Program-made: the position numbers and the translations under genes | Source of the DNA: Rhizaria sp. SCN 62-66 | Taxonomy: Eukaryota | Assembly (NCBI GenBank): GCA_001724265.1 | Contig: MEDY01000044.1 | Span: 1 to 64,000, forward strand | Length of the DNA: 64,000 bases | Direction of reading: 5' to 3' | Notes under the pieces: generated by a model | What the model saw: the letters and a program-made list of their open reading frames with translations, nothing else | Database searches by the model: none | What the model was told of the DNA's origin: nothing | Part shown: positions 348 to 42,900 of the stretch, piece by piece | Numbering within the stretch: position 1 is the stretch's first letter | How the letters are laid out: each line of letters starts with the position of its first letter

Positions 348-3243
348 GCTCAATTCGCGCTTCTCAACTCAGAGCCTTCCAATGCGACTGTTCCATTGCC
401 TTCCGCCGCTGTCGCAGCAGCAGCAACAGCAGCAACTGCAGCAGGCACTGCAATCGCCACTCACATCCTACCGAGCAAACCCAATGTACGTTTTTTTACA
501 GTTGCGTGTTCGTAATTATCACCTTTCTTTGACACTGACAAATGCAGTCTGTGCAAGTTATTCTTGAACACCAAGTACTCATGAATTGTACTGAACTGGA
601 TACCAGAGTTGTATCAGTACTGTAAGCTTAACACGTAAGTTACGATGCTCTGTGACGGTAATAATATTTTCCATCATCTGCGCTCATCTAATTCTTTCTG
701 CACCCCCGAAATCCATTATGTTCTTTTCCCAACTGCTTTGGACCTTTGATACTCGCATAGTACTGCCACCGGCACGACCACCCGATTGAGATCATCAACT
801 GGTGCGACACTTGCAACACCACCGCGTGCGCGCAATGCACATATCTGTTCGGCGAGCACAAGGATCACACGGGCCGCTTGCTCAGCAGCGTGCGCGCTGA
901 GCTGAAGACACGCGCAGAGCAGCTACCGCCGCAGCTGGCTCGCTTTGAACGCGACGTCAAGGTACGGATACACTTTGAAACACTTAAGTATTGCGAATCT
1001 CCCTCATAATAGCGTTTTCAGCGCAATTTAGGTGCTGTGTCTAAGTGTTATTGAGAAGAAAATATCAAGCAAAATTAGCATCTAAAAATGAAGCAAAATT
1101 ATCTCATATGCAATACGTTCTTGCATCGACTGTGTACTTGCAACTCAGGAGCGGAATGTCGATATGACTCACTTCAAGACCGAGGTCGAGGACGCGCATA
1201 CGGCTCTGCTTGACAAGAGCAAGTCCTTCACCGCCCAAGCCGCCGCCCCGCTTGCGACAGTGTTGTCGCAGCTCAAGCTTTACACCGCGCAGTCAATTAG
1301 TGCTGAAGAGAAGAGGCTCACAAAGGCACGCCGCAACCTCGAAGGCGTCAGCAGATCTGTTGCTGCGCCTGAGGTCACGGCAATGGCCGCACTTGTTGCA
1401 GCAAGCCCTGGCTGGCCCGCGAGCGTGGGCCCTGAGTTAAAAATCAGTAACATCAAGTAGTTGGTGAGCGCGCTTTCGCTGTTGACAAGCTTATCTCTAC
1501 AAGCGACGATGAGAGCGACGACGATGAAGACTGCCACATCGACGGTATTGTAAGCGCCCCATCTATTGTTAATTCTGCAATCAAAGCTGTAGATGCGGCT
1601 GCCTCTGTTGGCGTGTCCGTTGTTACTCCTCCTTTCACAACTGTTGCAAGTACCTTTGGCTGCGTAAACGTATCTGTTACTGTAGGCGTAAAGTCGGAAG
1701 GTAGTAACAAAGGTCAGACTCGCGGATTTGGTCAGGTGTGGTTAACAGGAGGCAATAATGATATGAGCGAGGATGCGAATGGAAGCAAGTCTCATGTGGA
1801 GTCCGACGTCAACGCTAAGAACGCAGCAACTATTGCTGGCTTAGAAAACGGACACACAGCCGTCATCAAGGTAGGCCTTCCAGCAGCACTAAACGTTGCG
1901 CCGTCTCAACACAATGCGAATAACACTATAGCAAGCAGCGACACTACTGTGTTGCGTGTACGTTGCGCTGTGTCGTTCCCTGACGTTTTCAGCAGGCGCG
2001 TGCATTGCAGCTGTGCGTTGATGTTATGGCGATTGAGATTGATGCACAAGTCGATGCCAGGCAGCAAAATGTAGTTTTTGCGCTGGAGGCCGAGACAAAT
2101 GTTTGGCAGGTTTGCAAGGTCGATTATGATAAGAGGATTCGTTTGCTAGAGTATGACAAGGAGACGTCGCAGAACAAGCAACGCGCGTTGGAGACTGAGA
2201 AGCTGAGTTGGCAGAAGTGCAAAGCCGATTATGATAAGAGGATTCGCTTGCTAGAGTCTGACAAGGAGGCTCTGGAGACTGAACTAGCGCCGCACCGGCA
2301 ACGAGTTGCTGATGAAGCATATAAAAAGGCTAAAGTGGAAGAGGAAGCCAAGGCAAAGGCAGAGGAAGATGAGGCTCGACGTCAAAACGCGCTGTGGGTT
2401 ACTTCATTAAAGTCTTCTGAATGGGTGGCCGAGTTTTACACGCACATTGCGTGTACTCTTGAGGAAAGCGGCTACCCGCGACGGCTCAATAGTCCGTGGA
2501 AAGCGCTTCCAGCCCCTGCGCGCAAACTTGGCGCGCCATCGTCAGCGGTACTTAGTGCACTGCAAAAAAAGGCGCGTGATCGCATTTTGTCTTACACAGC
2601 ATCAACTTTAAAAGAAAAATCCAATTCGGATTTGTTAATGCGGGCACAGTTTCTTTGCCCTGCCACGAACCAGAAAATCCGTTACAGTTTGGTAATCCGG
2701 CTTGATGATGCAAAGTTCCCCGCCAACGCCGCTTATGTTCGCGCCGCTGCGAGGAGCGGCAACTTGGGCGACTTAGTGCACCGTTTCGTGCCACGTGGCA
2801 ATTCTGCAGCAAAAAAGCTTTATGTCACGCTCTACGACTCTTAGTACAAAGGGGTATGTAAAAAAAAGCCTATAACGCTTCCTGACACTGATATCGTATA
2901 CGGAGAGTATACAGCACCTGGTGCTGACACGAGCCTGATCTATCCAGTCGGCACAGTACTCGTATATCCACGCATTACTGGAACGTCCAGTGGTGGCTCC
3001 CATGACACACCTGTATTCATCGTCTTCAAGCCCTGCGTAGCAAGTCTCCTGGGCGGTGCAGTGCCTGTCGGTTGCGTGATGTCGTGTGTGAAGGGGACAA
3101 CAGCGGCGAAAGCTGACAACAGTAGCATGCCATTCCATGATGATGTGTTGCGCTGTTTTGAGTCTTACTGCAGTTAGAAGAAGTGCTTTCAACAATCCAC
3201 TATCTCATGCTGCAAGTTTGAAAAAATTCATGGAATGAATTGA
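348..3243 (+). CDS. Multi-exon B-box zinc finger / coiled-coil / divergent cyclophilin-like protein (TRIMCyp-like architecture); 5' end uncertain
   Basis: Proposed exons 348-485, 761-961, 1149-1463, 1490-1870 and 1993(or 1996)-3243 have phase-compatible GT..AG borders. Exon 761-961 encodes CHRHDHPIEIINWCDTCNTTACAQCTYLFGEHKDH (B-box). The last exon reads through TAG 2842-2844 and TAG 3175-3177 to TGA 3241-3243, and there is another in-frame TAG at 1458-1460. The 1463/1490 join needs a 26-nt intron or a 1-nt frameshift. Confidence 0.7.
764..868 (+). other. B-box type-2 zinc finger coding segment
   Basis: C-x2-H-x9-C-x2-C-x4-C-x2-C-x6-H-x2-H spacing matches the B-box 2 pattern. Absent from the ORF track because it is an internal exon. 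Confidence 0.8.
962..1148 (+). other. Spliceosomal intron
   Basis: AAG|GTACGG ... CTCAG|GAG, AT-rich, joins ...ERDVK to ERNVDMTHF in phase 0. Confidence 0.8.
1871..1992 (+). other. Spliceosomal intron with tandem CAGCAG acceptor
   Basis: AAG|GTAGGC ... CTGAC (branch-like) GTTTTCAG|CAG; joins the 1613 frame to the 2005 frame in phase 0. Confidence 0.7.
2080..2283 (+). repeat. Intragenic ~105-nt (35-aa) tandem duplication in a coiled-coil region
   Basis: ALEAETNVWQVCKVDYDKRIRLLEYDKE / ALETEKLSWQKCKADYDKRIRLLESDKE / ALETE; the DNA core GATTATGATAAGAGGATTCG occurs twice. Confidence 0.85.
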
Positions 3244-3341
3244 ACGATATATTAGGAAGCGTTTCGAGGTCAATTAGTCAATGAAGTGTTGGGTAAGCGA
3301 CTTAATAAAATAAACATGAAAATCTCGCAACAATCACGAGC

Positions 3342-5037: not shown

Positions 5038-5932
5038 AACCAAGGCTCTCTCGCCAACGTCGCTCCACCTGAGACTGCTCACGCAGATGGCGCCACCGCT
5101 GAATCGTCGATCTTGTCGTCGCTGTCATCAGAGTCGTTGACATGGGAGTCCATAATGCAGTTCTCCGGCTGGGAACCCAAGTTTGATGCGCACATTGCGT
5201 GCACCCTCGAAGCCAGCGGCTACCCGCGTCGTCTCAAACGCGACCCATGAACGGAGGAGGTCGAGCCCTTCGCCGCCCCTGGACGACGAGCGGCTCCCTG
5301 CCAACGCCGCGCACGTCCGCGCTGCAATAGGGAACACGCTGGGACGCCTGCTGCACCAGTGCTTTGTTCCTCCGGGGCAAACCGCGGCGTCGCTGCCGTT
5401 CGTGACGTGGTACACTGGCGTGCTCCACTGCAGCTCGTAGACGCTCACGCTGCCGGACAGTGACATCGTCTACGGCGAGTACGCAGCGCCGGCCGCCAAC
5501 GCGGGTGTGGTGTATCCGGCCGGCACGAAGCATGTGCATTCGCGGGCAGTCGTTCCGGTCGACCCACCGTCGTGCGGCGGCGAGTGCGTGGCTGATACGC
5601 TGATGTTCCTCGTCTTCAAGCCGTGTGACGCGACGCTCTTGCGCGGCGCAGTGCCCGTTGACCGCGGGCTGTGCTGCTACACTGACTATGCGCAAGCGAA
5701 GGTGTATGATAGCGGGGACACTCCCTTTGACGAGGAGATGATACGGTGCTTCGAGAGGCCCTGTGCGCAGGAGACGTGCACTACGTACGAGTCAACAAAC
5801 AGGACAGACGTTCATTAGTGTTTATTAGGTTTGCCGAGAGTGACATGGCGCGCACCAGCGGTAATGTGCCTGTACGTGAACGGATTCGGAACTCAGTTTG
5901 TAGTTGCTCTATCGCGTGATGATGAATGCTAA
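5038..5932 (+). pseudogene. Disrupted paralog of the cyclophilin-like family
   Basis: WEPKFDAHIACTLEASGYPRR and LDDERLPANAAHVRAA...DIVYGE...VYPAGT...FLVFKPC...GAVPV...PFDEE match the 2005-3243 exon. There is a TGA at 5248-5250 where the paralog has Trp, and a frameshifting loss of ~58 codons near 5278. In-frame TAGs lie at 5438-5440 and 5816-5818. Both ends are uncertain. Confidence 0.7.
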
Positions 5933-6783
5933 TTTCGAAATCTAGTGACCACTCACAATGGTGACTGGCGACTGTGAGTTCAAAGAGAGGTATGGGGCAA
6001 GGGGCTGAGAGCCGAGAGAAGGAGCAGATAACATAATACAATGTATACTATACTGGTGAGTATCGATCAAAAGGACACCACTTTTGACCACCTCAACTTC
6101 AACCGCCATCAGCCACCTCGCTCCTCGCCTTACAAACCGGATTTCACCACTTCACATCCTCACATGTGATGAAAACAAAATTTAAGGCCATTTTCGTTGC
6201 AAATGAATACTTGATTGACAAATATTTTGCGATTCAATTATAATGCAATGAGAGATATATAGATATGCGCTAAAATTTCCCTATATACGAAGAATAAGCC
6301 AAATTTCAGATACATTACTTCCTAGGAGCAACTCGGTCGCACGTGTCACTTGTGACAATTGGCGCGTATATCGGCGTATAAGCAGACAGAGAACTTGCGA
6401 GAGAGAGCGATAACAGTACATGATATAGCGCACATATTTTTTATCGTAACAATGCGCGTTAAAGCAAGTTCCTTCTGTTGTGAGTCATATCAGTGACGAA
6501 AGTCACTATTCCGAAACGAGCGTCGGGGCTGCTGTGGCCTCCAACACCAATGGTCAAAAACATGCGATTCCCATACCCAGTAACTGTAGAATTAAGTTTC
6601 ACAAAATGATTCAATTTCAAAACGAACGTTTTGTCATAATTATATAATTATACATCGCAAAACTTTATATTCACTCTGCTTCATTCCTTTTTCCTTCCGC
6701 CCAATTGCACTCTAACACAAAACTGAAACGGCTCTCCTCTCTACATTTTCCTTCCTTGACCCCCTTACTCACCCTAAAGCCCG

Positions 6784-9411
6784 ATGTCGCACTCTGCGGC
6801 ATTTCGGGAACACCACGCATTTGCTACTACTCAGGGCTCCGCGCCCGGTGCCCAGACTGTGCGCTTTACTCCGGTCTACGGTCCTCCACAGCCCTCCACT
6901 CAGATGAGCAGTCGCAACCCCAATGACAGTAGCACTAGGACGAGCAGTAGCACTCCCAGCTCGAGCGCGCAGCTACCGCAGTCGTTTTCTTCCTCCGCGC
7001 ACGTGCGGCGGTACCCCGCAGTATACTCTTCGACGGCGCAACACGCACTGCAGCATCTGGACAGCACACACCGCTCCGCCGAGGCCTCGGCGTGGGACGC
7101 GCCCACCACGGCCTTCGCCGAGCAGCTCCCGCCGCCGCGCCGCCGCTTCGTGCCCGCGCGCGCGCGCTCCGCGCTGGCCGCGATTCCTGCACTCGCACCC
7201 GTCGCCGCGCACAGCGGCCGGCCTCTGCGTGTCGACGTGGGCGTGAACCTGCCGCGCATCGCACAGCTCGACGCGGCCGTGCGGAGCCAGGTCCGCTTTC
7301 TGGACAAGATCGTGCCGCAGTACATCGCCGACGCGGATAACGACGGCGTCCCAGACAACTTTGACCCCGGCAACCCCCATCACGCCGCCGCGCAGTCGCA
7401 GGCTCAGTCGCCGTCGCAGTCTGAGCCGCCGCCCGCGCCCGTGACTGCGGCCGAAGTGCGCGCGATCGCAGCGGGCGCGCGGCCTAGCGCGCACGTGCAA
7501 GAGCTGCTGCGGCTGCGGCAGCTCTGGGACGCGTATGGGCGCGCGCAGTCGCGGGCCGTCGCGGAGCGGGTGGCCAGGGCCAGGGCTGCCGCCAACACGG
7601 CGAGCGCGCGCACTGCCTCTGCCTCTGCCTCTGCATCTGCGTCTGCGTCACAGTGCCAGAGTGGCGTACGCCACGGCAGTGTGGCGCATGGTGCGGACGG
7701 CTACACCAGTGCAAGGCAGCATCACCAACAGCTCAAACACTCACGTGACAGTGGCCCAGGGCAAGGGGGCCACAGTCACTCGGAGGGTCGGCCTCAGCTT
7801 CAGGGGGAACATGGGTTCGATGAGAACTACGCGCAGAGACGCGAGGCCGCTGCTGCTCGCGCCGCCGCTCGGGCCCAAGTCGTTTCTATGTTCATGACCC
7901 CTACTGGCAGCAACAGTAGCAACATTAACAGCGAGAGCAACAACAAATCCACCGCGGGCAACGGCTCCCGGTCGCGCCGCCACCTTGGCTTCTTCAGCTC
8001 TATCGGCGGCCTCGCCGGCAGCGACGGGAGCGCGGGCAGCGGCGGCGGCGGCAGCGCGCTCGAGGCCCGCGTGGCCCTGACGCGGCGCGCGCGGCGGCAG
8101 CAACTGGCTACGGCGGCGGCGTCGCGCGCGCAGGCCGGCGCGGCGGAGCGGATCGTGGCCGAGACGCGGGAGCAGGGGCGCCGCGGCAGGGCGGCAGCCG
8201 AGGCGCGCGCGGAGAAGCGGCGGCTCAAGCAACAACAGAAACAACAGCAGCAGCAGACGATTGTTGTGAAGGACGGTGTTGCTGTAGTCGTGAACAGTTA
8301 CAACGGCCAGGAGAATGATTTCGACGATGAGGACGAGGACGAGGACGAAGACGACGAGGGGCACATGGTCCTACAGTCGCTTTGCGCTGGCGCTGGCGCG
8401 GGCGCGGGCGCGGGGTCACTGGGGCTGGGCGACAAGACTGCGGGCGCAAAGACAGGGGCCGCTGGCGCTGGGGCAACTGGGGCAGGATTGGACCGTGAGG
8501 AGCAGATGTTGCCGCACACGATGGCCTTCGTCAAGGTACGCAGGAGTTTCTCGAACTTGTTTTCATGTTTACTGAGCTCAATGCATTGTTTCTACACGAC
8601 TCTCTTTGTATATTCAATTTAAACTCACTGGTTGCTTGCATTGTTCGTGTTTCGTTTTTTGCGTTGTTTCCCTCAACTTCAGGCCATCGGTCTGCGCGCG
8701 ACGCCGTGGCAGGTCTCGGTGCCCGCCGCGCACTCGGCGCCCGCCGTGGGGCCAGGATCGCTTGCGAACGACCTGCGCCCGCGCTCGCGCGCGCAGTCGC
8801 GGGCCCAGTCGTCGCGTCCACACTCAGGCCACCCACAGCCTCAGCCTCAGTCGCAGTTCACGCAGTCGCAGTCTCTGTCGCAGTCGCACTCTTTGCGCCC
8901 CCAGTCGTCCCACCATTACTCGTCCTACGACCGCGGGTCGGCGCCCAACACCGCGCGCGTGCTCACCGGGGGTTCTGGCAGCTACGACACCACAGCACGC
9001 TACAACGCCGCAGCACACGGCCAGTCTGCCGATGCCGCCGCGCCCGGTCACGCCGTGCTCGCGGGCGGATACACGGTCCCCGTCCCCACCCCGACCGGCG
9101 CCTCGAGCTTCAGTGGCGGCGGCGGCGCCTCGCGGCCCTCTCGCCCGGCCACCGCGCGCGTGAGCGTGGTGCCGCGCCGCGCGGCCTCCCCGCGCGCGGC
9201 GCTGGCGTCCCGCAACTTCGCCTTCGACAAGTCCGCCGCGCAGGCCGCGCAGGCCGCGCAGGCTTTTGCCGCGGCCGCCACGGGGCACTCTGCGCGCGGG
9301 TCGCCGCGGGGCGGGGCCGGGCGCGCGGGCGGCGGCGCGGCGAGCGAGGAGGTGCAGGAACCCGACCCGGTGTACGGGCCCCAATATGTGCTCCGCGTCA
9401 GGCCGGTTTAA
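6784..9411 (+). CDS. Hypothetical Ala/Ser/Gln-rich protein, 2 exons (6784-8535, 8683-9411), ~826 aa
   Basis: Long GC3-rich frame from ATG 6784; one phase-0 intron; TAA stop followed by AT-rich DNA; no recognised domain. Confidence 0.75.
8536..8682 (+). other. Spliceosomal intron (147 nt)
   Basis: AAG|GTACGC ... T-rich ... TTCAG|GCC with a sharp GC drop; contains the in-frame stop that ends ORF 6784-8622. Confidence 0.85.
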
Positions 9412-10472: not shown

Positions 10473-10509
<37 letters not shown>

Positions 10510-15416: not shown

Positions 15417-18400
15417 ATGAATTCCGCTCTGTCGCCGTTTCGGACTCTTTTGAGGAAGAATGCGACACAGAAGTGGCGCTCTTGCCGCGCTAGCTTCATC
15501 GAATATTTCTTACCTTTGTTATTGTTGTTTTTAATTGGAGTCTTGAAATCTAAAATTTACGATTCGTTTCGCTTCGATGCTGCAGATTCCAAGACGATGA
15601 TTGGTCATTTGGACGCGAACTACGCCATGTTCCAAACCATGTTCCAGACCTCACCATTGTCCAAGTTTGACTACGCGTTCTGCTTTGTCGGCTCTGATGA
15701 TGGTTGGGAGGCGTTCCAGTCATTTACGACCTCACCCACAAACCCTATGTACGCGACACCAGTCCGACTTGCCGATATTAAGCGCTTTAGCTCACGAGAT
15801 GAGATGACTTCACTCAAAGCGACTCGGAGCGATTTGGAGCCGTTCTTGGTTGGCGTAGTTGAGACGATTACAACAACGCCCATCAAGAAGAAATCGACGA
15901 TATCTACTCATGACACCGCCGCCAATAACCTTACCAGGGCCAGTGGAGCTGACAGTGACGTGTTGATGACGTATAACTACGACTTGTATCAGTACATGTC
16001 GTAGTCGTACCGCTATCACCGCGATGACATGTTCGATATGTCAATGCGGTCGTGGGGCACCTAGTCTTATATCTTCATGGGTCCCTTTGCGATCATGGAG
16101 GGCATCCAGGCGCATTTACTGCGCAAGCATGGCGCAGTGAAGTTAGAACATATCAATGCGACTTTGTCCAATCACAGCGCTGTCAGTAACACCAGTGTCA
16201 ATATGACTGATGCGAGCAATGAGCTCAGTATCCTCTCCGTTTCCAAGACATTTTCCTATCACCTTGCCTCTGGTGCGTTGCCCGCCGGAACTGGTGCCAA
16301 GTTTCTCCGTAACGCCGACACTGCAGTCGCTATTTCTATATCAATTGCGCTGTTTATCCCGTTTATTCTTTTGACCTCAGTTGTTGCTGCTGAGAAAGAG
16401 ACGAACATGGTTGAAATGCTTCGAATTGCAGGTATTACGCTGCCTCAAATTGCGTTCTCTTGGGCGTGTTACTATGCAATCGCAATCGCACTCCTTGCGT
16501 TGCCCGCATCATGTATTCTTAGCATCATGTTGATTGAAAACACATCGATGGTGCTGATTTTTATCACACTTTTATTATGCCTCTTCAACATGATCGCAAT
16601 CTTTATTTTAATTTCGTCGTTCTTCTCTTCAACGCGCACCGCACAGCGTGTGTCTGCGCTCATCCTCGCCCTCTCTATCACACTTATTTCTGCTGTCCAA
16701 TCTATGAGGACGCGAATCAGCGACACTGATGTCACAGACTCCGCCCCAGGGCTGCTCATGCTGTCTTTTGCACCGACTGGGATGACGCTTGCAATTTCAT
16801 GGCTGATTTACATGAACCGTGTCACAGTGTCCTCGGTCACTCTGTTGGACACAAACAGCTCTGTGGACGGGTACTCTCTGACTGCAAGCTATCTTGCGTT
16901 GATGCTGGGCACTCTCATTTTCTCTTTAACCGGACTCTATACGTATGCAGTTGCTGCTGCAATGAATGATGGGCACGGTTTATTTTCCGCAATGTCGCAT
17001 CCATTCAAATCCTTTTTTTCCCGCTTTAGCTGCGAAGATAAGAACAACCTTACTAACAGACACTCTTCAACTAGTTTACAGAATGAGGTCAACAACAGTG
17101 TAGAAGACAAAGATGCTGATGATAATGACGATGATGAACGCAAGCTTTACGCACAACCAGCACAATACCACTCATGTGCTCTCATCGAGCATGGTATGCG
17201 TGGCAACATCAAAAGCAATTGTGACACTAACAGCCAGACCTCAGACACTTGTCATGGACACACTGATGAGGACAATGAAATCTTGCGAATTCGCAACTTA
17301 CGCAAGGTGTACATGCCTTCAAACGTCATAGCTGTGAAGAATTTCAACTTAGATATTCACCGCGGTGAACTCTTTGCCTTGCTTGGTCATAATGGGGCAG
17401 GTAAGAGTACAATCTTGAATTCATTGACTGGGTTTTGTCAGCCAACCTCTGGGAGCGCAAGGATTGATGGCATTGACGTTCGTGAATGTCGTAGTATAAT
17501 CTCAAGCACATCAAACAATACGACGAAGAACGTTCACACGAATCGCCATCGTGACACAGTTGCATGGACTTGTATTAACGGCCCTGCCTTAGGTATGTGC
17601 CCTCAAAACGACATTTTATATCCTGAAATGACTCCGCGCGATCACTTTACTCTCTTCGCAAGGCTGCGCGGTGTGCCTGCTGAGCGGCTGAACACAGAAG
17701 TCGATCGGTGGCTTGCTGCTTTAAATCTCTTAGACTTAGCAGATACACACGCCGCCGCCGCTGCTGCTGCTGCTGCTGCTGCCGCCGCCACAGCAGCTGC
17801 TGCCACATCAGCAACTGTACAAGTCGAGCAGACAAAACCTCCCGCACAAAGTTTGATGCTGAGCTACACGCAGGGTAACAAAGGAGCCCGAGGGCGTGTT
17901 GTCGCTGATGCACCGACAAGTTCGCTCTCTGGTGGGCAGCGGCGGTGCGTGTCGCTGGGCATTGCGCTGATCGGCGACCCGAAGCTGGTGATCCTGGACG
18001 AGCCGACGGCGGGGCTGGACGTCGCGGCGCAGGCCTCAGTGCGCGCGCTGCTGCAGGAGCAGCGCAGGCACCGCGCGATCCTGCTCACGACGCACTCGAT
18101 GGAGGAGGCCGAAATCTGCGATCGCATTGGCATCCTTGCCAACGGCTCGCTGCAGACCGTGGGCTCGAGTCTGTTCCTCAAGCGCACGTTCGGCGCCGGG
18201 TACACGCTCACAGTTGTAAAGGCACCCGAAGTGACACTGACTGAGACGGCTGCACGCGGCAAGAAAGCCGTTGCCGCAGCAGCCGCGGCGCTTGCCGCGC
18301 TGGAGCCAACAGCTGCCGAACTATCTGTTGAGAATTTGACGCGAGTGCGATTAACACCATCAGGACGTCGCATTGCGCGCGCGCTTTCGTCTGTTATGCC

Positions 18401-21400: not shown

Positions 21401-21773
21401 TGCGACACACGCGGTTCCTTCTGTAGCGCAGCCGCGCCCCGCTCCCCGTGCCACCGACTATCACACTGACATGCCGGCGTCATCTGTGTTTAGTGTGCTC
21501 GAACGAGTCAAGAGTTTGACTGGGATTGAAACATGTACAGTGGCAACATCAACGCTTGAAGACGTGTTTCTGCGTATTGTTGCACCGCAGAACGCAAGCT
21601 CTGGTGACTGTGACAACAATGTTGTCTCTGGAGGCCAAGAGGAGTCCAGTTCATTATCCGCGACAGCGCGGTCAGCGACCTCAGTGGCTGCGAGGTCTGT
21701 ACGAGACGTCAATAGTTCTGCTGGGCGCGTCAGCAAGGCGGATACTCTGGAAGAACCCCTGCTGCCACAGTGA
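15417..21773 (+). CDS. ABCA: Full-size ABC transporter subfamily A (TMD-NBD-TMD-NBD) with a deletion/frameshift in NBD2
   Basis: N-terminal LLRKN...R....E...P ABCA motif; Walker A GHNGAGKS and GSNGAGKT; signatures LSGGQRR and YSGGNKRK; ILDEP in both NBDs; TTHSMEE in NBD1; TPLSDVF and STLEDVF motifs. In-frame TAGs at 16002-16004 and 16062-16064, intron 20343-20476, frame jump near 21190, TGA stop. Confidence 0.9.
17751..17804 (+). repeat. (GCN)n poly-Ala insertion in ABCA NBD1
   Basis: GCC/GCT run upstream of the LSGGQ signature. Confidence 0.8.
20343..20476 (+). other. Spliceosomal intron (134 nt)
   Basis: CAG|GTTCGT ... T-rich ... TTCAG|GGC; phase-0 join of the 16077 and 20465 frames. Confidence 0.85.
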
Positions 21774-22375: not shown

Positions 22376-25300
22376 ATGTCTGCGCTAAAACCATTCTCCT
22401 AGTTGTCCTCAGCCTCTGTTGTCTCTTCATCGTCGTCGTCTTCGCGGCGCAAGCGCGCTGTGTCCCCCTCTACCCCCCAGTAGAGGGCCTAGACCTCCGT
22501 TTCCTCCCGCTCGGGCTCAGGCTCCTCATCGCCGGCCTGTTAGGCGCCCTCTGGCCCCAAGACCAACCGCGCGCACCGCTCAGCGCACCACACCTCCCAC
22601 GACGCCGGGCTCGATTAGGCGCTCCTCTAGTTGCCGCTGCCCCCCAACAACAACAACATCAACACTCACCACAACCACCAGAACTCCGCGCAGCGCGCGA
22701 GCAGTCGGTCGGCCTCGCGCTCGCCCACGGTGAAGCCCGCCGCGATGCGCAGCCAACACAGCCGCAGCCCCAGCCCCAACTCTTCCAAGAGCGCCCCCGG
22801 CCGTCACCGCTCTGACGCGACTGCTGCGTCTGTTGCGACTGAAGCGGCCGCAGTGTTTTCGGTTGCTGCTCCTGCTGCCGGTGCTGCTGTCGGCGGCGTT
22901 CGTCCCCTGTCGACGTGGTCTCTGGCCGAGATGATCTGCGCACTCGCGCACCACAACCCCAACGCTGACGACAACCACGTCAACAACGGCAACATCACTG
23001 CTGCTGACACCGCGCCGGCGGCTGACGCCGTGCCGGCGGTTGACAACAGCTACATCGTGAACGACCCTGCCTTCGCGTAGGCCCACGCGGCCTCGTAGGC
23101 GGCCTCTGCCGCCTTCGCCGCCACCAGCGCCGCTGCGGCCGCCAGCCAGGCCGCTGCGGCCGTCGCGGAGGCCTTCGCGGCTGATCTGGCCGAACTGGCC
23201 AGCACGACGAAGCGCGCGAGCGAGGTCGTGGTCGCGCTGCCCGAGGCGAGCCTCGCCGCCGCAGTGGCCGCCTCGGTACAGACGCGGCGCCAAACCCTCG
23301 CCGCGCTCTACAGCAACGGCGGCGGCGACAACAACGCCGCAGCTAACCACAACAAGAAGAACTCCCGCAAGAACAACAACAGCGCTCGGAGCGCAACCAC
23401 CGACGGCAACGCCAGCAGCAACGATGAGAGCAAGTCTGTCGCCGTGACTGACACAAACGCTGACCCTTCAGCTGCGACTGCACCTATGACTGCAACTGCG
23501 GCTGACCCCGCCGTGGCCCCCGCAGCGGCCCCCGCAGCGGCAGCGGCAGCAGTTGCGCCTCCGGTGAACCCCGAGCGCATGATGATCTTCAACCCGACAC
23601 CGGCGCCGCTGCCGCTGGCGATCCGCAACACGCCCTTCGCGCTGCCGCGGCGCGCCAGCTACCTGCGCCCGCTGGCCGCGCAGGCGCTCGAGTAGCTGCA
23701 GTACAAGGCGGCCGGGCTCGTCCCGCTGGCGACGCTGCCGGGCCGCGGGCTGTGTCTGCTCGTCGGCGTCTAGTGGCGCGGCGTGCAGGAGGGCGTCAGC
23801 GCCATGGTCTGCGGCGGCAAGCGCGAGCCCGACGACCCGTCCTCGCTCTTCACCGCACTGCGCGAGTTTAACGAGGAGGCCGCCGACGTTTTGAGCGCGC
23901 CGGTGCGCCGCGCGGTGGGCGTGCTGCCGGGCGACGCCGCGCTCGCCGCCGCAGACGCCGTGCGCGTCGCCGTGCTGCGCGAGTGGGTCCGAGCAAAGGG
24001 GCCCGCGGGGGCGCTGCCCGGCAACGCGCCGTGGTTCCCCGATGCCGCCGCTGCTGGTGCTGCTGCGGACACTTCTGCTGCTGTTGTTGACGTGTCTGCT
24101 AGAGAGACTGCGGTGGGAGCTGTGTTGAGCACAGCCGACGCGATCCGGGCCGCGGCTGCCAGAGACCCGGCGTTCGGCGATGACCCCAGCGTGACTGATG
24201 TGAGCGCGCCTGCCCAGACCGCGAACGCTGAGCCTATTGTGCAGCACGTTGACGCGAGCCTTCAGGTGGACGCTGCCCCCGTGGACACTGCTGCCGAGAC
24301 GGTGACTGCTACGGCGGAGACGGACACCCCCTCAGCTGCTGAGTCTGCTGCCCCAGCCACTGGCAAACTCAACAAGAAGGCCAAACGCGCCGCTGCCGCT
24401 GCCGCCACTGCTGCTACGGCGGACGCTTCCGGGAAGAAGAAGTCAAGCCGCCTGGCGACCTTGTTCAACGTGCCCTCTACGTGGGCGACGCAGATCGACG
24501 GCGCGTACAGCGCCGTGCCGCACCTGTTGCCGCCAGATCTTTCGCGCCTCTGCCACCTCGACCGCGTCGCCGCCGCGGGCGCTGGCACGCTTGGTGACAG
24601 CGACGCAAACGGTCTCTCTCTCGCTGCGGCGATGGCCGACAGCGACGCCACGAGCGCTGACGGCTCGACCGCTGATTCGACTGCTGCGGCATCTGCGTCT
24701 GCGTCTGCGTCTGCTGTGCTTAAGGGCAGGTACACGCCCGATGCGTGGAGCAACCGACACGTGAGCCTGAGTGCGGCCATCGACGCCGCGGCGGCCGCGG
24801 GTCACGCTGCGGCGTGGTTTGCCGACGGGCGCTACGTGCTGCACATGGTTGACCTTGACCGCGAGACCAATCACGGCGGCAGCGGCGCCTCTGAACCCGT
24901 CCACGACGCGACTCCTTCCGGGGATTGCGCCGATAGAAGTGCGGGCGCCTGTGCGCTGCCGGTGCGCGGCGAGAGCGAGATGGCCAGCGAGGCTGCGCGT
25001 ACGACGGCGGCGGAGCTGATTGCGCGCGCTGAGCGCGAGCTCGCCCGCCACCACCTCAACGAACTCGCAAGCGCCGGCACTTTCACCGAGAGCAGCGCCG
25101 TCATCGATGGCAACGCCGTTGACTCAGGCAATGACGTTGCGGGCGATGCGCCTGCTACTGATCTCACCGCGCGCGTCGTCGGCGGCGACGGCATCGCGGC
25201 CGAGGTGTGGCCCTTCACCGTCTCGGCCCAAGACCGCGTGCCCGCGGCCAGCAAGACTCCCGCGCCCGCGCCGACGCGCGCCGAACTCGCTGCGGCGCTC

Positions 25301-27076
25301 CGCCTCGGCAGTCATCGCGGTCACCACAGCCAGAACGCGTCCGACTCCGCCGCCACCGCCTCAGCCATTGGCACTGCCACTGACGCTGCTGGCGGTGGTA
25401 TCGACGCTGCGGTCGACACGAGCGCGCTGATGCTGGGCATCCCGCGGCTGCACACGTACCTCCGCCGGCGCGCAGTCATGGGCGACGCGGACCCGCTCTG
25501 GCGCGACCCCACCCCCGTTGCCTCACCCGCGGCCAGCCCCGCGGCAAGCCCCGCGCTTACGCCGAGCCCGCGCCGCCAGAGCCCCCGCGCCGCTGTCTTC
25601 GTCGGTGCTGGTGCCGCGGCGGTAGGCGGCGCGGCGGCGTGCCCGGCGCCCGCGCTTTCGCTCGCCGACGACTGCGCCCCCGCTGCCGCGCCCCAGCCCA
25701 CCGCTCCGCAGCCTCAGCCCGACGCGCTCCAGCCAGCGGCGCTGACCGAGCCCGTGCCGTCCTACCCTCTGGCTGACGCGGCCGTGCCTCACTCCGCAGC
25801 CACCGCAGCGACTGCCACGAGCGCCGTCAGTGTGGACACCCGCTCTGCGACGCCTGCGACTGCGAAGACAGAGACCGCGACCCAGACCGCGCCCACTGAT
25901 GCGCCGGCCGATGCGCTGGCCGCGAGCACGCCTACAGAGACTGATGTCGACACCGCCGCCGCCGCCGCACACGCCGCCGCCGTGGCTGCGGCGCGCGCTG
26001 TGCGCGTGCCGACCGCGGCACAGCTGGCGTCGCTGCAGGATCAGATGCTCGCCGTGCGCTGGGTGCCCGTCACGGCGCTACTCCACGCCACCCAGAAGCG
26101 CTACGAGGTCCTCGTGCGCTCCGTCGCCGCAGCTGGCACAAATGGCAGCGCCACTGCGACGACAGCAACGGCGGCTCAGAGCACTGCGAACAACACTGAC
26201 GCCGCCGGCGCGACCAACGCCGCGAGCGCCAACAAGCCCTCCAACCCGGCGCTGGCGTCGAAGCTGCGCATCGCAGCGGGCGTGCACGGGACCGAGGCGG
26301 CGCCGGCGCTGCCGAGCGTCAGTCTTTCCGCAAGCGAGCGGCTCACGGCGGCGGACTTCCGCGCCGCGACGCGCATGATGCAGCAGACTCCAGCCGAGGT
26401 CGCGGCCGACTTCCTGCGCGCCGTGCCGCGGTCCTCGTCCTCGTTGTCAGCTGGCGGCCGCAGCCTGAGCAGCAGCAACAGCGGGACCGACGTCGACGAC
26501 GAGGCCGACTGCGACGGACACAGTGTCGCCTCCGCCGCCGCCGCCGACGTCGTGTTCGACGTCTCGGCCGTGTACGGCGCTGCGGTGTCCGGCCACATCG
26601 CCGCCATGACTGACAGCAGCGCCAACTCCCCCGTGTTCACGGCCGCTGCCGCGGGCTCGACTGCGGACTCGGCGCGCTCGAGCGGCGGCCGCTCCTCCCC
26701 GCTGCCCGCGGCGCCGCTGAGCCCGGCGAGTCGGCGCACCGCCCGCGCCCGCGCGCGGTTGGCGGCGGCGCGCGGTGAGTGGGAGCGCGTCGCGCGGGCC
26801 AGCGGGTTCAAGCACCCGCCGCACCTTGTCAAGGACATCGACGGGTGTCCGCTGCCGCTGTACCGCATGCTGGGGCAGATCCTCTGCGTGCCCGCCGTGC
26901 GCAGCTACCTCATCGAGCGCGTGGCACGCGCCACCCCCGACGCCGTCTACGCGCCCGGAAACGATAGCGGCAGCGGCAGCGGCACGCCCAGCAGCGACAA
27001 CGATAGCGGTCGCTGCGCCGTTGAGTGTGCCCGCGTTACAGGGAGTAGCGCCGCGGAGGGCAACACGAACATCTAA
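22376..27076 (+). CDS. Nudix-box protein with long Ala-rich insertions, ~1566 aa (may start at an upstream in-frame ATG, e.g. 22175)
   Basis: One frame interrupted only by 10 TAGs (22400, 22481, 22490, 22541, 22616, 22628, 23078, 23096, 23693, 23771). Nudix-like box GGKREPDDPSSLFTALREFNEEA at 23813-23881, preceded by YKAAGLVPL...LCLLVGV; TAA stop. Confidence 0.8.
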
Positions 27077-27557: not shown

Positions 27558-30365
27558 TCACAGCCGGCGCGCAAGAAAGTTGTAGTACCGGATCCGCGAG
27601 TTCGTGTCGCACGCCGCCGCACCGCCTTGACACAGGGCCTCAAACCACGTCATGACGGTCTCGTCGAACGGGTGGTGCGGACTCGGCTGCTCAGCAGCAG
27701 GCGCCGCCACAGCATCTGGTACAGTTGCGCTGGCTGCCGCGCGGCGGGGGATGTGGGCGTTCTGGTCTACGCATGCCACGACGCGGCCGACGGGCACAGC
27801 GCCCGCGGGCAGCAACCGCGCCGCGCAGGGCTTAAACGTCACGAAGCAGAGGATATTTTGCGGGGCATTGAACACGTCACCGAGCGGAGGCAGCACCGAG
27901 CGCGCGCACATCAGCAGCGTCCCCGAGGGGTACACCACGTCCGCGTCTCTGTCTCCTACCAGCGCAGCGGCCTCCCCGTAGATGAGGTCCTCGGCGGGCA
28001 GCGCGAGCGGCGCCGCCGCGCAGGGGGCCTTGTGACGATACAACGACACGTACGGCAGCGCCGCAGCGTCGACCCCGGCTGGCGCAAAGCACCGGTGCAC
28101 ATATGCACCGAGCGCGTACATGCGCGTGGCGGCGCGGAAATGTGCGGCGTGGGTGGGAAACGCGTCGTCGTGCAGCGTAACCATAAGGTGGTACATTGCT
28201 CCGCTGTCCTCCGACTGCGGCGGCGTAAAACACGCCACCATCACGACGTGCATGTCCGTGCCCATGCAAGTGGGCCCCACTGTCGCCAGCGCCTGCAGAC
28301 GCACGCACTCGCGCGCGCGCGCTTGCAGCAGGGCCAGCGCAACCGCCGACGGCGCTCTGCTTTCCGTGGGCGCCAATGCAGTGACTGTTTCTGCGCCACC
28401 GGACGCCGGGTAGCCACCGCGCCGCAACACGGCCGCAATGTGCGCGTCAAACGCAGCAAGCCAGTCGCCCCCGTGCGCGGCAGCAAACGCCCGCACGCCC
28501 GCAACAGCCTCCTCGGGGGACACTGCAACAGCAGCAGCGGCGCGTACACTGGCAGCGTCCGAGCCCGCAGGAGTCGACGCCAGAGAGAGCAGAATGGACG
28601 CGGGCGCGACCCCAGCGGCGGCCAGCGCAGCCTCAAGCTCGCCAAGAGCGAGGACAACAGAGTCGGGAAGCTCATCCGCACAGCGCAAGAGAGCAATCGC
28701 GTGTTTGCCGTGCGCCTTCACGAAGTCTACCAGAAAGTCGCCATGCAGAGGCGCATTGACTTCAGCTTCCGCCCCGGCCTCAGCGTCACCGCTAATGCTA
28801 GCTTCCGCGTCGTCAAAGCCGTTGTCGTCGTGGGGTGCAACCAGCATCCGCAGCACCGCGAGTGCGCGCGCGACGGCATCTGTGTTTGTCCCCGCGTCGA
28901 ACAGCGCGGCCGCCAGCACAACGCGCACGCAGAACAACACGACACCGCCCTCGCGTAGCGCCGTGCGCACACACGCGGACTGCGGCCGCTGCAGCGCGTT
29001 GTCGAGCAGCAGCGCGAGCTCGGTGGCCAGCGCCCAGGGCTGCGGCTCTGTCCGCGCACCGCGCGCGGGCGCTCCCGAGAGGCCATGCGCAAGCACGCTC
29101 TGCAGCAGGCCCGCCGAGACGAGGCGCGCGGCCAGCGCGGCGGGGCCGGCGGCAAGGCGCGCGACGGTGGCCGCCAGGAGGGTCTGCATGGGGGCGCTGA
29201 GCATGTACCAGTTGTGGTCGACAAAGTCAGCGATTGCGGTCACCCGCGGCGCCGTGAAGACCGCGGCGCAGAGTTCGCCGTCGAGGTCGGCGGCGCAGCG
29301 CAGCAGGCGCACGGCTGTAAGGGGCCCGTTTTCAACGCTGCGGGACGGAAGCAGCTGCAGCACGCCGTCAAAAGCAGGGCTATGCAGAAACGCAGCAAAG
29401 TCATTGCGCAATGAGTCGTCGTCCGCGGCCACGCCGTCCGCAGCAGCACGTTGATGAGAGGTAACATAATTAGCGTCATCGGCGGTGGGGACGTGCAAGG
29501 GGACGGTGTGCAAGGGGGCAGTGTGCATCATGGCGGAGGTAAGAGCCGTGATAAAGAGGCTGGCGAGCGCGGCGTGCGTGAGGTGCACCGCGACGCCGAC
29601 CTGGTCTCCATCGGCGGCGGCGGCGGCGTAGCGCTGAGCCGCCGCGCTGAGCAGCGGGACGAAGGGCGCGAGGTCGGCCGCGTAGTCCACCCGCATTTCA
29701 GCCGCCGCAACAGCAGCCACCATCGATGTAGTAGCAGCAGACGCAATTGCAGCAGGCGCAGCTGCGGTGGCGGCGGCAGTTGCGAGGAGTGACATGACTT
29801 GCGCAATGGCGTCCGCGCAGGTGCGGTGCACAGCGGCCTTGCCCAAGTCCTCCGTGCTGGCGTGCGCGGGGTCCGCAAGCAGGATGCGGGTCACATCAAG
29901 CAAAGGCCGCAGCGCGGCGCTGCTGGCGACGCGGGGGCGCAGCTGAGGCGTGCTCTGGCGTGCGGTCTGGGCGATGATGCCGAAAGCCATAGTGGCAACA
30001 TGGTCGCTCCATCCGCAGCGGCTGAGCCAGGTCAGAAGATGTTCGGCAGCGCCGCAGGAGACCATGGCCGCGCTGCCTGCGGGAGTTGCGTTGGCGACCC
30101 AATGTAGCAGACTGGCGGACTCGCTACAGCGCTCGGTGCTGCCGCTGCGTTCCTAGCTGTTCAGTGACTCGACGATGAAGTCAAACAAACCGCTTTCGTC
30201 GCCAATCGCGACACATTTATCTGTGCTCGAGATTAGAGAGCTCCTGGCAGAGTACAACGCAGAGGTATGAAATGCCCGCATCAGAGCAAGTAGTCCTTTG
30301 GAGCCAGGAACAAGATTGTACGTCACTGCGATCGCCGCGTGCAAGGACCCAATGTCGAACTCCAT
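27558..30365 (-). CDS. ARM/HEAT-like helical region fused to a divergent cyclophilin-like domain, 935 aa
   Basis: ORFs 30153-30365 and 27558-30065 are one frame joined through TAG 30153-30155. ARM-like segments: MVSCGAAEHLLTWL, LVSAGLLQSVL, LREGGVVLFCV. The C-terminal domain is homologous to 2680-3215 and 5279-5790. TGA stop. Confidence 0.8.
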
Positions 30366-39900: not shown

Positions 39901-42900
39901 TTGCGCCGCGGTACTAACGCCACCATGGGCTGATTGCGGTGCAGTATACTGCGGTGCAATAGTGGCCTGTGTAGTGGGATCCCACGAGATCGCCTGCATC
40001 ACGGCGTACTTCTGAGCTAACCTGGCGAGCTGAGCCGTGGTGACGTACGCCTCCATCATGATATTGTCTCCAGTTACAGTCGCGCTCGGACCAGCCCGAC
40101 GCGGTTGCTATTGCGTATCACTGATCGCATCTACGCCGTGCTCAGGCGAGGGCACCGCAGCAGCAGCGGCGTCTTCAGGGGTAGAAAATGTCGCCATGTC
40201 GACGACCTGAATCACGATTGCGTTCGGTGTGTACAGCGACGGCGGCCGCAGCGGGTTGCTGAACGCCGCCTTGTTTGCACTTTCAGCAGCTGCTGCAGCC
40301 AGTCCGCGGCCGCCGCTGGGATCGACCGCAGTGCCAGGTGTAAACAAAGGCGTCGGCGCAGTCAGGGGGTTTTGCACTGGCTCAGCAATGTACGCCCACA
40401 GTCCACTGAGCAGGCCAGACACGGGGCGACAAGAGTGGCGCACGCCAGCAGCCCGCGCAACAGCGCTGGCTTCTGTCAAGTCGGTGCGAGTCGGCAAAAC
40501 GGGATCGACAGAGGCAAGCAGCGCGTCACCAGTCTCGGGCGCAACACCGCAGTGCATGTCAAACACAGACGCCAGCGAGCGTTCCGCACCACGGCCTGCG
40601 ATGCCACCCCGAACGGCATCTGTCGCGACTGCTGGGGCGGGCAGCGACGACACAGCAGCACGGGACACGCGGCCCCATGTGCGAGCACCGTTGTATTGGT
40701 CGAGAAGAGGCGCTTGGTCAAAGTTCATCGCGTGTGTCGACAGCGACCAAGATGTCGCCAGAGACGACTGTTGCTGGTGTGAATGTTGGTTAAATTGGGG
40801 ATGCGGCTGAGGCTGCGCAGGAATAGGAGTGCCTCCGTATCCGACTCGACCAGACACAGGCCGGCGCTGCGTCAGAGGCGATGCAATGTTTGCTGCCATC
40901 GCCACAGCCTCCGCACGTGCATGCTCGGCTTGAATCTGTTGCGCCTGTTCCCGCGCGTGCTGGTGTCCATACATGCCATTGAGTGCGTGCACTGGTGCAA
41001 CTGCACTGTGGCCAGAGTAAAAGTACACCGACATCCGCGTCACAAACGTTGGTTCGTCGTCGTTGAGTGCAGCATTCGTGCGGCCCATCTCAAGCCAACC
41101 GTCGCGGCCACCAACAGGAGCAACGCGAACACCGGTGCCAACAAGCATTGACGGCAGCGCGGCCGCTGCAGCAGCGGCGTTATCACCCGCAACAGAAGGC
41201 TTGTCACGCGCATAACCCGCGCTTGCGTTGTAGTTGGACTCGGGATTGAACAGAGTCTCGAGCTGCTCAGTGTACATGTGAACCATTTGACCGCGCTGCA
41301 GCTCACCATTCGCAAGCACGTTCAGCCATGCTGCAAGTGCTGAAGAAGCAATGCCAGGCGCGCGCGCGGAGGTAGACTGGGATGGGTCAGCAACAGCAGG
41401 CGGCAAGCAAGCAGGGCGCGCGAGCGCGGCTCCGGTTGTCATGCTGTGCGGTGCAGAAGCCGCTGAGGCGGCTGAACGAATCCCTGCTGAAAGCACAAAG
41501 GGGTACAGCATTGTCAGCACAGGGAAGCTCGATACACTTCGTGCTAAAGAAGTCATCGTGACTGGGCCTGGCGACATCACAATCGTTGTAGGTGCAGAAG
41601 TTACGACATGAGCCTCTTCAGAGACTGTCGCAGGTGTGACCGTGTTGTCAGTGCCCGCACCCGCAGCATCTGTCGTAGGTACGGGAGCGGGCTCAGCAGC
41701 GGGCACGGGGTCCACAGGTTCAGGATCGCAACGCTCCAAGTAGTCTGCGCCCCACAGTGCCAGCGCGCGAGCACGGGCATTTGCCAGCTCTTGACGCGCC
41801 GCAGCAGCGGTGGCGGCACGGGCCTCCTTGAGAACTGTGGCCTGTTGCGCTGCAGCCTCCGCCGAAGCGGCAGCAGCTGCAGCAGTCGCAGCAGCGCGCT
41901 GGAGTGGCACAAGCTGCTCACGCAGTCCGGCGATTGCAGCACGGGCCTGCTCGTCCACATCACCGCTGTCAATGTCAGGTGACGGCGAAGGACCAAGTGC
42001 GGGCCCAGAGTCGGCGCCAACGTCCAGAGTCAGCGGCGCGCCGGCAACAGGTGCAAGCATGTCTCCGCGACCGCTACCAAGAGGGGCTCCATCTTGGTTG
42101 CTGTCAAGATCGTCATGGGCATCTAAGGCACTGACACCGCCTTGAAGAACAGCGACCTGAGCTGTATGCGCGTCACGGAGCGTGGCAATCTGCTTCTTCA
42201 ACGCGATCACTTGAGACTCCTCTTGGTATGCAGTCTCACGTGCGCGGGCACGCTCCTCACGAGTGCGAACATCAGCTAAACGCGCGATCTCAGCTTCAGC
42301 AGCGGCGTCGCGAGCTGCGGCACGCATTGCCGCTAGATCGGCACGCATTGTAATCTGCGCACGTTGAGTGGCACGACGGACGGAGTTCAGTGTCTGTGCG
42401 CACAAATACAAAGCGTACTGACTCATGTACGCAGAAAAAGAAAAGTACAGTCGAGGCGCGTCCACCTCACTGTCAGCAGCAGGTGAATCGGAGCTGTTGT
42501 CGTGAGGCAAGCCAGCGCGACAAGCGGGACAATTGAGTCGGGTCGCCGTGGCGTGAGGAAGGTCATACGCGTCAGCGGCAGGCTTTGTATATGCCGGGTT
42601 CGCCTGCAATACACGCACGAAAGACGAGCAGCCAGATCGATTGTCGTCAAGCGTATCCACCGCAGCCGAAGCTGTCGCATGACCCGTGGGATTGTTACTT
42701 TGCTGCTGGATTTCACCACCTGCAGCAGATCCAGGGCGCGAATTCCTCGGGTCAGCATCAGCTTCGGCAGACACGACAGGCACCGGGGATGTCGAAGCGG
42801 CCAAACGCTGTGGAGAGTGGAATGAGGCTGCTGATCTAAGCCGACCATTGTTACTACCACGGCGAGCAAATTGCGGCACAGGAACAAGAGAGTCCTCCGC

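Follow-up and report, generated by a model that had tools for sequence, protein, structure and literature searches.

In-frame TAG codons in a 64-kb eukaryotic window from wastewater-type samples point to UAG as a sense codon, possibly for glutamic acid, with UAA and UGA as stops

The 64,000-nucleotide (nt) stretch analyzed here, positions 1 to 64,000 of the forward strand of contig MEDY01000044.1 (assembly GCA_001724265.1, Rhizaria sp. SCN 62-66; hereafter the window), contains TAG triplets within the coding frames of several genes, including those for an ABCA-type transporter, a Nudix-like protein, and a protein of at least 11,026 codons. The TAG observation is real, and error, introns, and chance do not explain it. 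The best-supported reading, which we consider likely, is that UAG is a sense codon, whatever its residue, and that UAA and UGA are stops. This reading follows from the continuity of frame across conserved blocks, the presence of 16 TAG, no TAA, and no TGA within coding frames, the use of TAA or TGA at seven of seven supported gene ends, and the recovery of the same TAGs in DNA contigs of three studies, all of which support the claim of a first-pass annotation of this DNA that TAG is sense while TAA and TGA remain stops. That annotation favored glutamine (Gln) as the residue. The alignments analyzed below point instead to glutamic acid (Glu), and the joint proposition that UAG is sense and encodes Glu appears to us to fall slightly short of an even chance.

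Results

In-frame stops and gene ends

Coding frames were assigned by homology, by the periodicity of guanine plus cytosine (GC) content at third codon positions (GC3), and by two introns. The frames counted as coding (cypA, the two-exon gene at 6778-9411, the region 9749-14695, both ABCA exons, the Nudix open reading frame (ORF), cypC, and the giant ORF) amount to 18,398 codons, in which TAG occurs in frame 16 times and TAA and TGA do not occur. The seven supported gene ends were as the first-pass annotation had described them, TAA (9409, 14693, and 27074) or TGA (3241, 21771, 27558, and 30919) and never TAG, and across each of them GC declines, with 0.49-0.80 over the last 300 nt ahead of the stop and 0.34-0.46 over the first 300 nt beyond it.

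Every TAG in the earlier list was confirmed at its coordinates, those at 3678 and 3774 being CTA on the plus strand and hence TAG on the minus strand. We graded five sites as strong (16002 and 16062 in ABCA, 23693 and 23771 in the Nudix-like domain, and 40108 in the giant ORF), 11 as moderate (2842 and 3175 in cypA, 30153 in cypC, and eight at 22400-23096), and five as weak (1458, 3678, and 3774, in ORFs that have no homolog or Pfam match, and 5438 and 5816, in the degenerate cypB). Overall use of TAG is low, at about 0.03-0.1% of codons, and patchy, and the sites often occur in close pairs (16002/16062, 22481/22490, 22616/22628, 23078/23096, and 23693/23771).

Independent DNA and RNA

Logan contigs were compared with the window over a 20-kb stretch, outside which lie the TAG at 40108 and the sites below 14500. 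Matching contigs came from three studies, X1 (2015), X3 (2017), and X4 (2025), and the window itself may derive from the X1 sample. Both ABCA TAGs are contained in X1 record 1 (14500-17744, 0 differences) and in X4 record 17 (one difference, at 15092). All ten TAGs of the Nudix ORF are contained in X1 record 3 (21190-28479) and X3 record 12 (21377-24839), and six of the ten in X4 record 20 (22317-23034), each with 0 differences. Across the ABCA and Nudix-ORF TAGs, the contigs of these studies therefore differ from the window at 0-1 positions and never at a TAG. Because the TAGs of these two regions are unchanged in contigs of three studies, they are not assembly errors; the first-pass annotation had named CAG at its sites in raw reads as a refuting observation, and in ABCA and the Nudix region these contigs retain TAG. 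The TAG at 30153 was bridged by no DNA piece among the matches listed. Sampled words of 15300-25000 occur in bioreactor, wastewater, activated-sludge, and microbial-fuel-cell runs from seven studies dated 2015-2025.

Contigs of polyadenylated (polyA) RNA from run X7 match the window at 23988-24398 (Nudix gene, 0 differences), 28217-28519 (cypC), and 32089-34244 (giant gene), in each case downstream of the TAGs of the gene concerned. Among variants found in other runs, 11 of 15 are synonymous in the assigned frames, several of the 15 coming from higher-depth contigs that may be paralogs.

The ABCA gene

15417..21773, plus strand: ABCA-type full transporter gene; exon 1 to 20342, intron 20343-20476, exon 2 from 20477, TGA end at 21771
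16002..16004, plus strand: TAG at residue 209 of ORF 15378-20342, in the N-terminal extracellular region of ABCA; in X1 and X4 contigs
16062..16064, plus strand: TAG at ABCA residue 229; in X1 and X4 contigs

The product of this gene matches the Pfam families ABC_tran (twice), ABC2_membrane_3, and R1_ABCA1. Its two TAGs lie in a single block that aligns without gaps to three homologs. The TAG at 16002, in the context MTYNYDLYQ..S[TAG]SYRYHRDD, occupies a column in which the homologs have V, T, and Y, and the TAG at 16062, in WGT[TAG]SYIFMGPF, aligns to WHTDSYIVTGPY in a column in which they have D, N, and D.

A scan of metagenome contigs with the ABCA alignment returned 79 bacterial-type ABC loci and a single eukaryotic relative, the distant L001, which is 31% identical and has no TAG in frame; the same scan of genome contigs returned ABC-transporter loci of bacterial and archaeal genome records only. 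A search of the ESM Atlas with ABCA exon 2 yielded nothing beyond generic ABC clusters. No further DNA of this organism was obtained from the scans of metagenome, viral, and genome contigs. One locus labelled as bacterial, L081 (SVCV01000005.1, assigned to a Clostridiales metagenome-assembled genome (MAG)), matches ABCA over ~6 kb (10001-15955) at 29% identity, as against ~650 nt in the other bacterial loci, and could be eukaryotic DNA that was binned with a bacterial MAG.

The ABCA frame breaks near 21185, where, in comparison with L001, ~29 residues of the H-loop region of the second nucleotide-binding domain (NBD) are missing (ANRSVILTTHSMEECEALAGRIGIMAGGR in L001). The X1 and X4 contigs both break at 21190, beside a segment of approximately threefold depth, and an assembly collapse of a gene-converted repeat is as likely here as a real lesion or deletion. 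The nucleotide-binding segments at 17835-18501 and 20503-21169 have 100% protein identity among P0001, P0004, P0005, and P0006, paralogs and relatives that are 40-69% identical elsewhere, and contig depth at the shared segments is ~3x that of the flanks. The identical segments and the raised depth suggest gene conversion among ABCA paralogs.

The Nudix-like gene

23576..27076, plus strand: Nudix-like protein gene with a long Ala-rich tail; TAA at 27074, followed by a drop in GC
23693..23695, plus strand: TAG in the Nudix-like domain, AAQALE[TAG]LQYKAAG; in X1 and X3 contigs
23771..23773, plus strand: TAG located 15 codons ahead of the Nudix-box-like motif GGKREPDD..REFNEE; carried by X1 and X3 contigs
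22400, 22481, 22490, 22541, 22616, 22628, 23078, and 23096, plus strand: eight TAGs ahead of the Nudix-like domain, within Ser/Ala-rich sequence

The Nudix label has less backing than the first-pass annotation implied, as the weak NUDIX match in Pfam (13.6 bits, E 0.068) falls below the cutoff of 21.1; the family in which the domain is conserved comprises P0126, P0128, P0129, and P0130. In that order, the homologs have E, E, G, and V at the TAG of 23693 and E, E, M, and E at the TAG of 23771. An AlphaFold model of the domain had a mean predicted local distance difference test score (pLDDT) of 41.4, too poor for a fold search.

All ten TAG trinucleotides within 22169-23773 are in frame 0, and they are followed by 1,100 codons free of stops. 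The stretch that carries the first eight remains in frame, with GC3 of 0.63-0.89 and with neither TAA nor TGA over 535 codons. The eight fall within 700 nt, mostly as pairs 9-18 nt apart, at a local density ~50x that of other coding sequence. Dinucleotide indices were not distinctive in this TAG-rich stretch, and hypermutation resembling repeat-induced point mutation was rejected as its origin. No homolog was found over 22400-23096. In the homologs, the Nudix-like domain begins 37-95 residues from the N-terminus, and the stretch 22400-23096 may extend the N-terminus in this lineage specifically or may precede the true start, for which a Met-Met near 23579 is a candidate.

The giant ORF

30919-63999, minus strand: giant ORF that continues past the window edge (at least 11,026 codons); TGA end at 30919
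40108..40110, minus strand: TAG, the only stop of any kind inside the giant ORF

The TAG at 40108 is preceded by 7,963 open codons and followed by 3,062. GC is steady across it at 0.55-0.67, compared with 0.27-0.41 in real spacers, and no intron-like features were found at this site. The protein is rich in Ala and Ser, has no Pfam domain, and carries an (AKAEAE)n-like acidic-basic repeat close to its C-terminus. Among 628 candidate proteins of 4,400-14,000 residues, the size range searched, there was no homolog of the giant protein around the TAG; shorter forms were not searched.

The residue at TAG positions

Candidate residues were compared through BLOSUM62 sums over the four testable columns, which come from two families and hold 14 homolog residues. 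Glu gave the highest sum of the 20 residues (18), followed among those compared by Asp (9), Gln (2), Lys (-7), and Leu (-28), and when only the closest homolog of each family was used the sums were 10 for Glu, 7 for Asp, and 2 for Gln. Glu accounts for five of the 14 homolog residues and Asp for two, with Gln and Leu absent, and the two closest homologs in the Nudix-like family have E at four of four TAG positions. Because the Nudix-domain TAGs align to Glu and one ABCA TAG aligns to D/N/D, Glu is favored, and on these thin data the residue inserted at UAG is more likely to be Glu than Gln. The proposal of Gln as the residue is accordingly not favored, its sole support being one column of cypB, and the inspection of conserved columns that the first-pass annotation had suggested as a check on Gln favors Glu. 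The codon contexts CAA-TAG-CAA and CAG-TAG, offered earlier as evidence for Gln, carry no information on the residue.

The cyp family

2842..2844, plus strand: TAG in cypA, between conserved family motifs
3175..3177, plus strand: TAG in cypA, 22 codons ahead of its TGA end
5156..5932, plus strand: cypB, degenerate paralog; contains TAGs 5438 and 5816
27558-30413, minus strand: ORF of cypC; TGA end at 27558
30153..30155, minus strand: TAG near the 5' end of cypC, with a candidate Met 70 codons ahead of it; GC3 of 0.70 around it

Three paralogs of a ~250-residue C-terminal domain are present, at 1984-3243 (cypA), 5156-5932 (cypB), and 27558-28520 (cypC), with the shared motifs LDD..FP.NAA..RAA, LP..D..YGE, YP.GT, FKPC, and GAVPVG. 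The name "cyclophilin-like" that this domain had been given found no backing, as the domain has no Pfam match and a Protein Data Bank sequence search with the family profile gave 0 matches. Its AlphaFold model (mean pLDDT 35.4) was too poor for a fold search, and scans of viral contigs and genome contigs with the family found nothing.

In alignment A3, the TAG at 2842 is flanked in one frame by LDD..FP.NAA..RAA and LG..VHR.F.P.G before it and by LP..D..YGE, YP.GT, FKPC, and GAVPVG after it. The TAG at 3175 is aligned to Q in cypB and to a MAFFT gap in cypC, where an ungapped count from a shared F gives G. Relative to cypA and cypC, cypB has a deletion and a frameshift; from the translations, ~45 residues are missing in comparison with cypA and the frame changes between GYPRRL and LDDERLPANAA. 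As a degenerate copy, cypB is of low evidential value. Its TAG at 5816 lies six codons before the stop position of the paralogs, and beyond it GC drops from 0.62 to 0.47.

The end of cypC falls within one residue of the C-terminus of P0125, a relative with 68% identity. Just downstream of the TAG at 30153, five of five variants at 29991-30129 are synonymous in the cypC frame, and P0124, the database gene call for cypC, starts after this TAG. A 225-nt unitig overlapping 29931-30155 has ~6x the depth of its flanks, and the cyp family may accordingly have more than three copies.

A B-box zinc finger (PF00643, 24.5 bits) is present at 620-1009 on the plus strand, directly after a TAG at 758 that is not among the listed sites. 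GTAAGC and GTAAGT donors occur 126-139 nt upstream of this TAG, GC there is 0.41, and the TAG is most likely a 3' splice site ahead of a B-box exon. On these features, cypA may be a TRIM-like multi-exon gene that combines the B-box, coiled-coil repeats at ~2000-2400, and the C-terminal cyp-like domain.

Introns, other genes, and layout of the window

8536..8682, plus strand: spliceosomal intron of 147 nt, GTACGC...TTCAG, GC 0.39; contains an in-frame TAA at 8620
20343..20476, plus strand: spliceosomal intron of 134 nt in ABCA, GTTCGT...TTCAG, GC 0.36
6778-9411, plus strand: two-exon gene, ORFs 6778-8535 and 8683-9411 joined in frame by the intron; TAA at 9409
9749-14695, plus strand: coding region; TAA end at 14693

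The ABCA intron is shown by the paralog P0005, in which ..ARQGLRDWV.. runs uninterrupted over the junction. Both introns have a GT[AT]CG[CT] 5' end, an internal AACTCAC element, a T-rich tail, and a TTCAG 3' end. Introns are sparse, and the giant ORF contains none over its 33 kb.

The window is eukaryotic DNA of heterogeneous GC content, with 50-75% in coding stretches and 27-45% in spacers. Its genes are arranged in same-strand runs, with six plus-strand genes up to 27,076 and two minus-strand genes from 27,558 on. The only ARAGORN call, a 98-nt tRNA-Pro(CGG) at 9966-10063 (plus strand), lies within the GC-rich coding region 9749-14695 and is probably a false positive, and an Rfam scan of the window found no family at its gathering score. 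A giant-virus origin of the DNA, considered because of a report on genetic codes in giant-virus MAGs (PMC13524828), was set aside: the window encodes a full ABCA transporter and an ORF of at least 11,026 codons, and a scan of viral contigs found no relatives.

Discussion

Alternative explanations for the in-frame TAGs

It is very improbable that the TAGs are not codons at all, being instead the 3' ends of in-frame introns or chance junctions between ORFs in GC-rich sequence. GT..AG introns do exist in the window, one of them with an in-frame TAA, and the TAG at 758 most likely marks a splice site, but none of the listed TAGs looks like a 3' splice site: GC in the 150 nt upstream of them is at least 0.48, compared with 0.36-0.39 in the verified introns, and they lack the features of those introns, namely low GC, a pyrimidine tract, and a candidate 5' splice site 120-150 nt away. 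Single-stop junctions with at least 100 codons on both flanks number 32 in the six frames, 22 of them at TGA; because shadow frames are often open for more than 100 codons, such counts are useless as a test, and chance junctions could account for 1458, 3678, and 3774. They do not account for gap-free homology across four sites, nor for a continuation of 3,062 codons after 40108. The possibility that TAG is an ordinary stop and that the genes are pseudogenes or recent nonsense mutants in a GC3-rich genome is also unlikely, although several observations agree with it: cypB is visibly degenerate, the ABCA frame is broken near 21185, the TAGs are clustered, relatives lack them at the same places, and alignment to a conserved Glu is equally compatible with a GAG-to-TAG mutation. 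Moreover, 42-83% of the possible single-base nonsense changes in these genes yield TAG, and the exclusive presence of TAG is weaker evidence than it appears because TAG is the commonest nonsense product in GC3-rich genes. Under a model of random nonsense mutation, the probability of 16 TAGs in 16 is nevertheless ~5e-5 (3e-5 to 7e-5), or ~0.005 by a hand estimate at the same rates when the eight upstream Nudix-ORF sites are left out. Pseudogenes should show mixed stops, frameshifts, and an even spread; what was found is TAG at 16 of 16 sites, no frameshift in the TAG-bearing stretches, and no frameshift, TAA, or TGA in 18,398 codons, with clean frames beyond the TAGs of the Nudix and giant ORFs, polyA-RNA contigs that match the downstream parts of three genes, and variants that are mostly synonymous. 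The ABCA break, for its part, is located at contig ends in a repeat of threefold depth and may be an assembly collapse.

Two further explanations accept that UAG can be decoded. UAG might be ambiguous, that is, a stop at gene ends that is read through internally by near-cognate tRNAs or by a weak suppressor, with no clean reassignment. The very low and patchy use of TAG and the position of TAG 5816 near the expected C-terminus of cypB agree with this, and context-dependent codes are known (the accessible parts of PMC4967479 and bioRxiv 10.1101/2022.04.12.488043), as is the double role of UAA as Glu and stop in Blastocrithidia, in which reassigned codons are distributed non-randomly within frames (PMC12153298, likewise in its accessible text). 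Since T, A, G, and C all follow the TAGs of the window, there is no fixed readthrough context, and the positions after the TAGs have no sequence context in common; in addition, none of seven supported gene ends uses TAG, ten leaky stops in a single ORF would together leave hardly any product, and the aligned columns indicate a single class of residue, the acidic one. Taken together, we regard an ambiguous UAG as quite improbable. A UAG that is sense and encodes Gln, as in the codes of Iotanema, Hartmannula, and Trochilia, is distinctly unlikely. In its favor, the UAG reassignments described in PMC5304391 and PMC11687900 most often yield Gln, CAG becomes TAG by one transition, assigning the TAGs to Gln also gives the upstream Nudix stretch a normal composition, and cypA TAG 3175 pairs with Q in one paralog column. 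That paralog is cypB, a degenerate copy, and cypC does not share the Q; Gln scores 2 to the 18 of Glu over the four columns, and zero of eight aligned residues at the Nudix-domain columns are Q.

Points against a sense reading and against Glu

Several observations count against the reading of UAG as a sense codon for Glu. The evidence comes from one 64-kb window, in which ARAGORN found no tRNA with a CUA anticodon and which contains no eRF1 gene, and no RNA over a TAG was found among the X7 polyA-RNA contigs listed. If TAG ended one-quarter of genes, zero TAG ends in seven would by our own estimate be expected about 1 time in 8, and the TAG at 5816 may be the terminator of cypB. That copy and the ABCA frame break near 21185 are exceptions to the picture of intact genes. 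Over the ABCA region, relatives have no in-frame TAG, P0004 through an uninterrupted ORF of 1,126 residues and L001 through ~1,820 codons. P0004, P0125, and P0126 come from one relative with roughly 65% identity. The density of TAG is very uneven, with 10 in 535 codons and 6 in 17,627 (Fisher P = 3e-12); the first 535 codons of the Nudix ORF hold ten TAGs and the 11,026 codons of the giant ORF hold one. Neutral synonymous codon use does not predict such unevenness. As to the residue, the four columns represent two families only and two of them are variable, a GAG-to-TAG nonsense mutation would align to Glu equally well, and composition does not separate the candidates, as counting the TAGs as either Glu or Gln takes that residue from 1.7% to 3.4% of the upstream stretch.

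A proposed reassignment and its implications

If UAG does encode Glu, the change could have come about through a CUC-to-CUA anticodon change in a tRNA-Glu, combined with poor recognition of UAG by eRF1, and under such conditions GAG-to-TAG changes would be tolerated. The low and patchy use of UAG is compatible with a reassignment of recent date or with avoidance of a reassigned codon because of its cost, and the lack of TAG in the ABCA genes of P0004 and L001 would fit a change that is recent or species-specific. Tentatively, and with rather more doubt than confidence, we propose a new nuclear code in which UAG would mean Glu and UAA and UGA terminate, at an early or costly stage in which UAG is rare and locally dense in one N-terminal low-complexity stretch, in a eukaryote that recurs in wastewater and bioreactors; this would be an independent UAG-only origin outside ciliates, fornicates, and sainouroids and the first UAG-only code for Glu.

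If this proposal is true, it would add a further independent case of UAG-only change with a new residue and more evidence that eRF1 can lose recognition of UAG alone. The low and patchy usage could then offer a rare view of a reassignment in progress, a process over which the "codon capture" and "ambiguous intermediate" models are debated. In practical terms, gene callers that use the standard or bacterial table would truncate the proteins of this organism, as the calls P0124 and P0127, which begin after or stop at TAGs, illustrate, and eukaryotic bins from wastewater metagenomes may be mis-annotated.

Comparison with known codes

UAA and UAG were long thought to shift meaning jointly. Documented cases in which the two are decoupled are few and comprise, in the accessible text of PMC5304391, PMC11687900, and PMC10553269, Iotanema, the rhizarian exLh, some phyllopharyngean ciliates, and Oligohymenophorea sp. 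PL0344. In the fornicate Iotanema spirale, UAG encodes Gln while UAA and UGA are stops (PMC5304391). The window resembles this system in the reassignment of UAG only, with UAA still a terminator, in a little-sampled microbial eukaryote. It differs in that the residue looks like Glu rather than Gln and in that in-frame TAG appears much rarer. No fornicate affinity is apparent either, as the best named ABCA matches, with 23-54% identity over small portions of the protein, come from groups as scattered as fishes, oomycetes, dictyostelids, Symbiodinium, and trypanosomes.

The long GC-rich genes and 134-147-nt introns of the window appear unlike ciliate macronuclear DNA. In the rhizarian exLh (Sainouroidea) and in an uncultivated phyllopharyngean ciliate lineage, UAG is read as Leu (PMC5304391, PMC11687900); these share with the window a UAG-only change in which UAA is kept as a stop, whereas Leu is the worst-fitting common residue here. 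The phyllopharyngeans Hartmannula sinica and Trochilia petrani read UAG as Gln, prefer UAA as a stop, and are reported to use UAG widely as sense (PMC11687900). Theirs is likewise a UAG-only reassignment found by mining public sequence data, but they are ciliates that use UAG widely for Gln, whereas its use here is sparse and the residue looks acidic.

Decoding of UAG as Glu is itself documented in two systems, both described here from the accessible text of the reports. In Oligohymenophorea sp. PL0344, UAG is Glu, UAA is Lys, and UGA is the stop, and suppressor tRNAs have been reported (PMC10553269). The likeness to the window is the decoding of UAG as Glu; the difference is that UGA is the sole stop in PL0344, whereas here TAA closes three of seven genes and is absent in frame from the 18,398 codons. 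In the trypanosomatid Blastocrithidia, UAA and UAG (UAR) encode Glu, UGA encodes Trp, UAA also serves as a stop, and cognate tRNAs are described (PMC12153298). There too a stop is read as Glu and the reassigned codons are distributed non-randomly, and the same-strand gene runs of the window are a further likeness, but all three stops are reassigned in a GC-poor genome, whereas the window shows a change of TAG only, a coding GC of 50-75%, and cis-introns. No report of UAG as Glu with UAA and UGA as stops, or of a recoded wastewater eukaryote, was found in the full-text literature, subscription journals and supplements aside. In the accessible text of the reports compared here, UAG is known as Glu only alongside other changes, UAA as Lys in PL0344 and UAR as Glu in Blastocrithidia.

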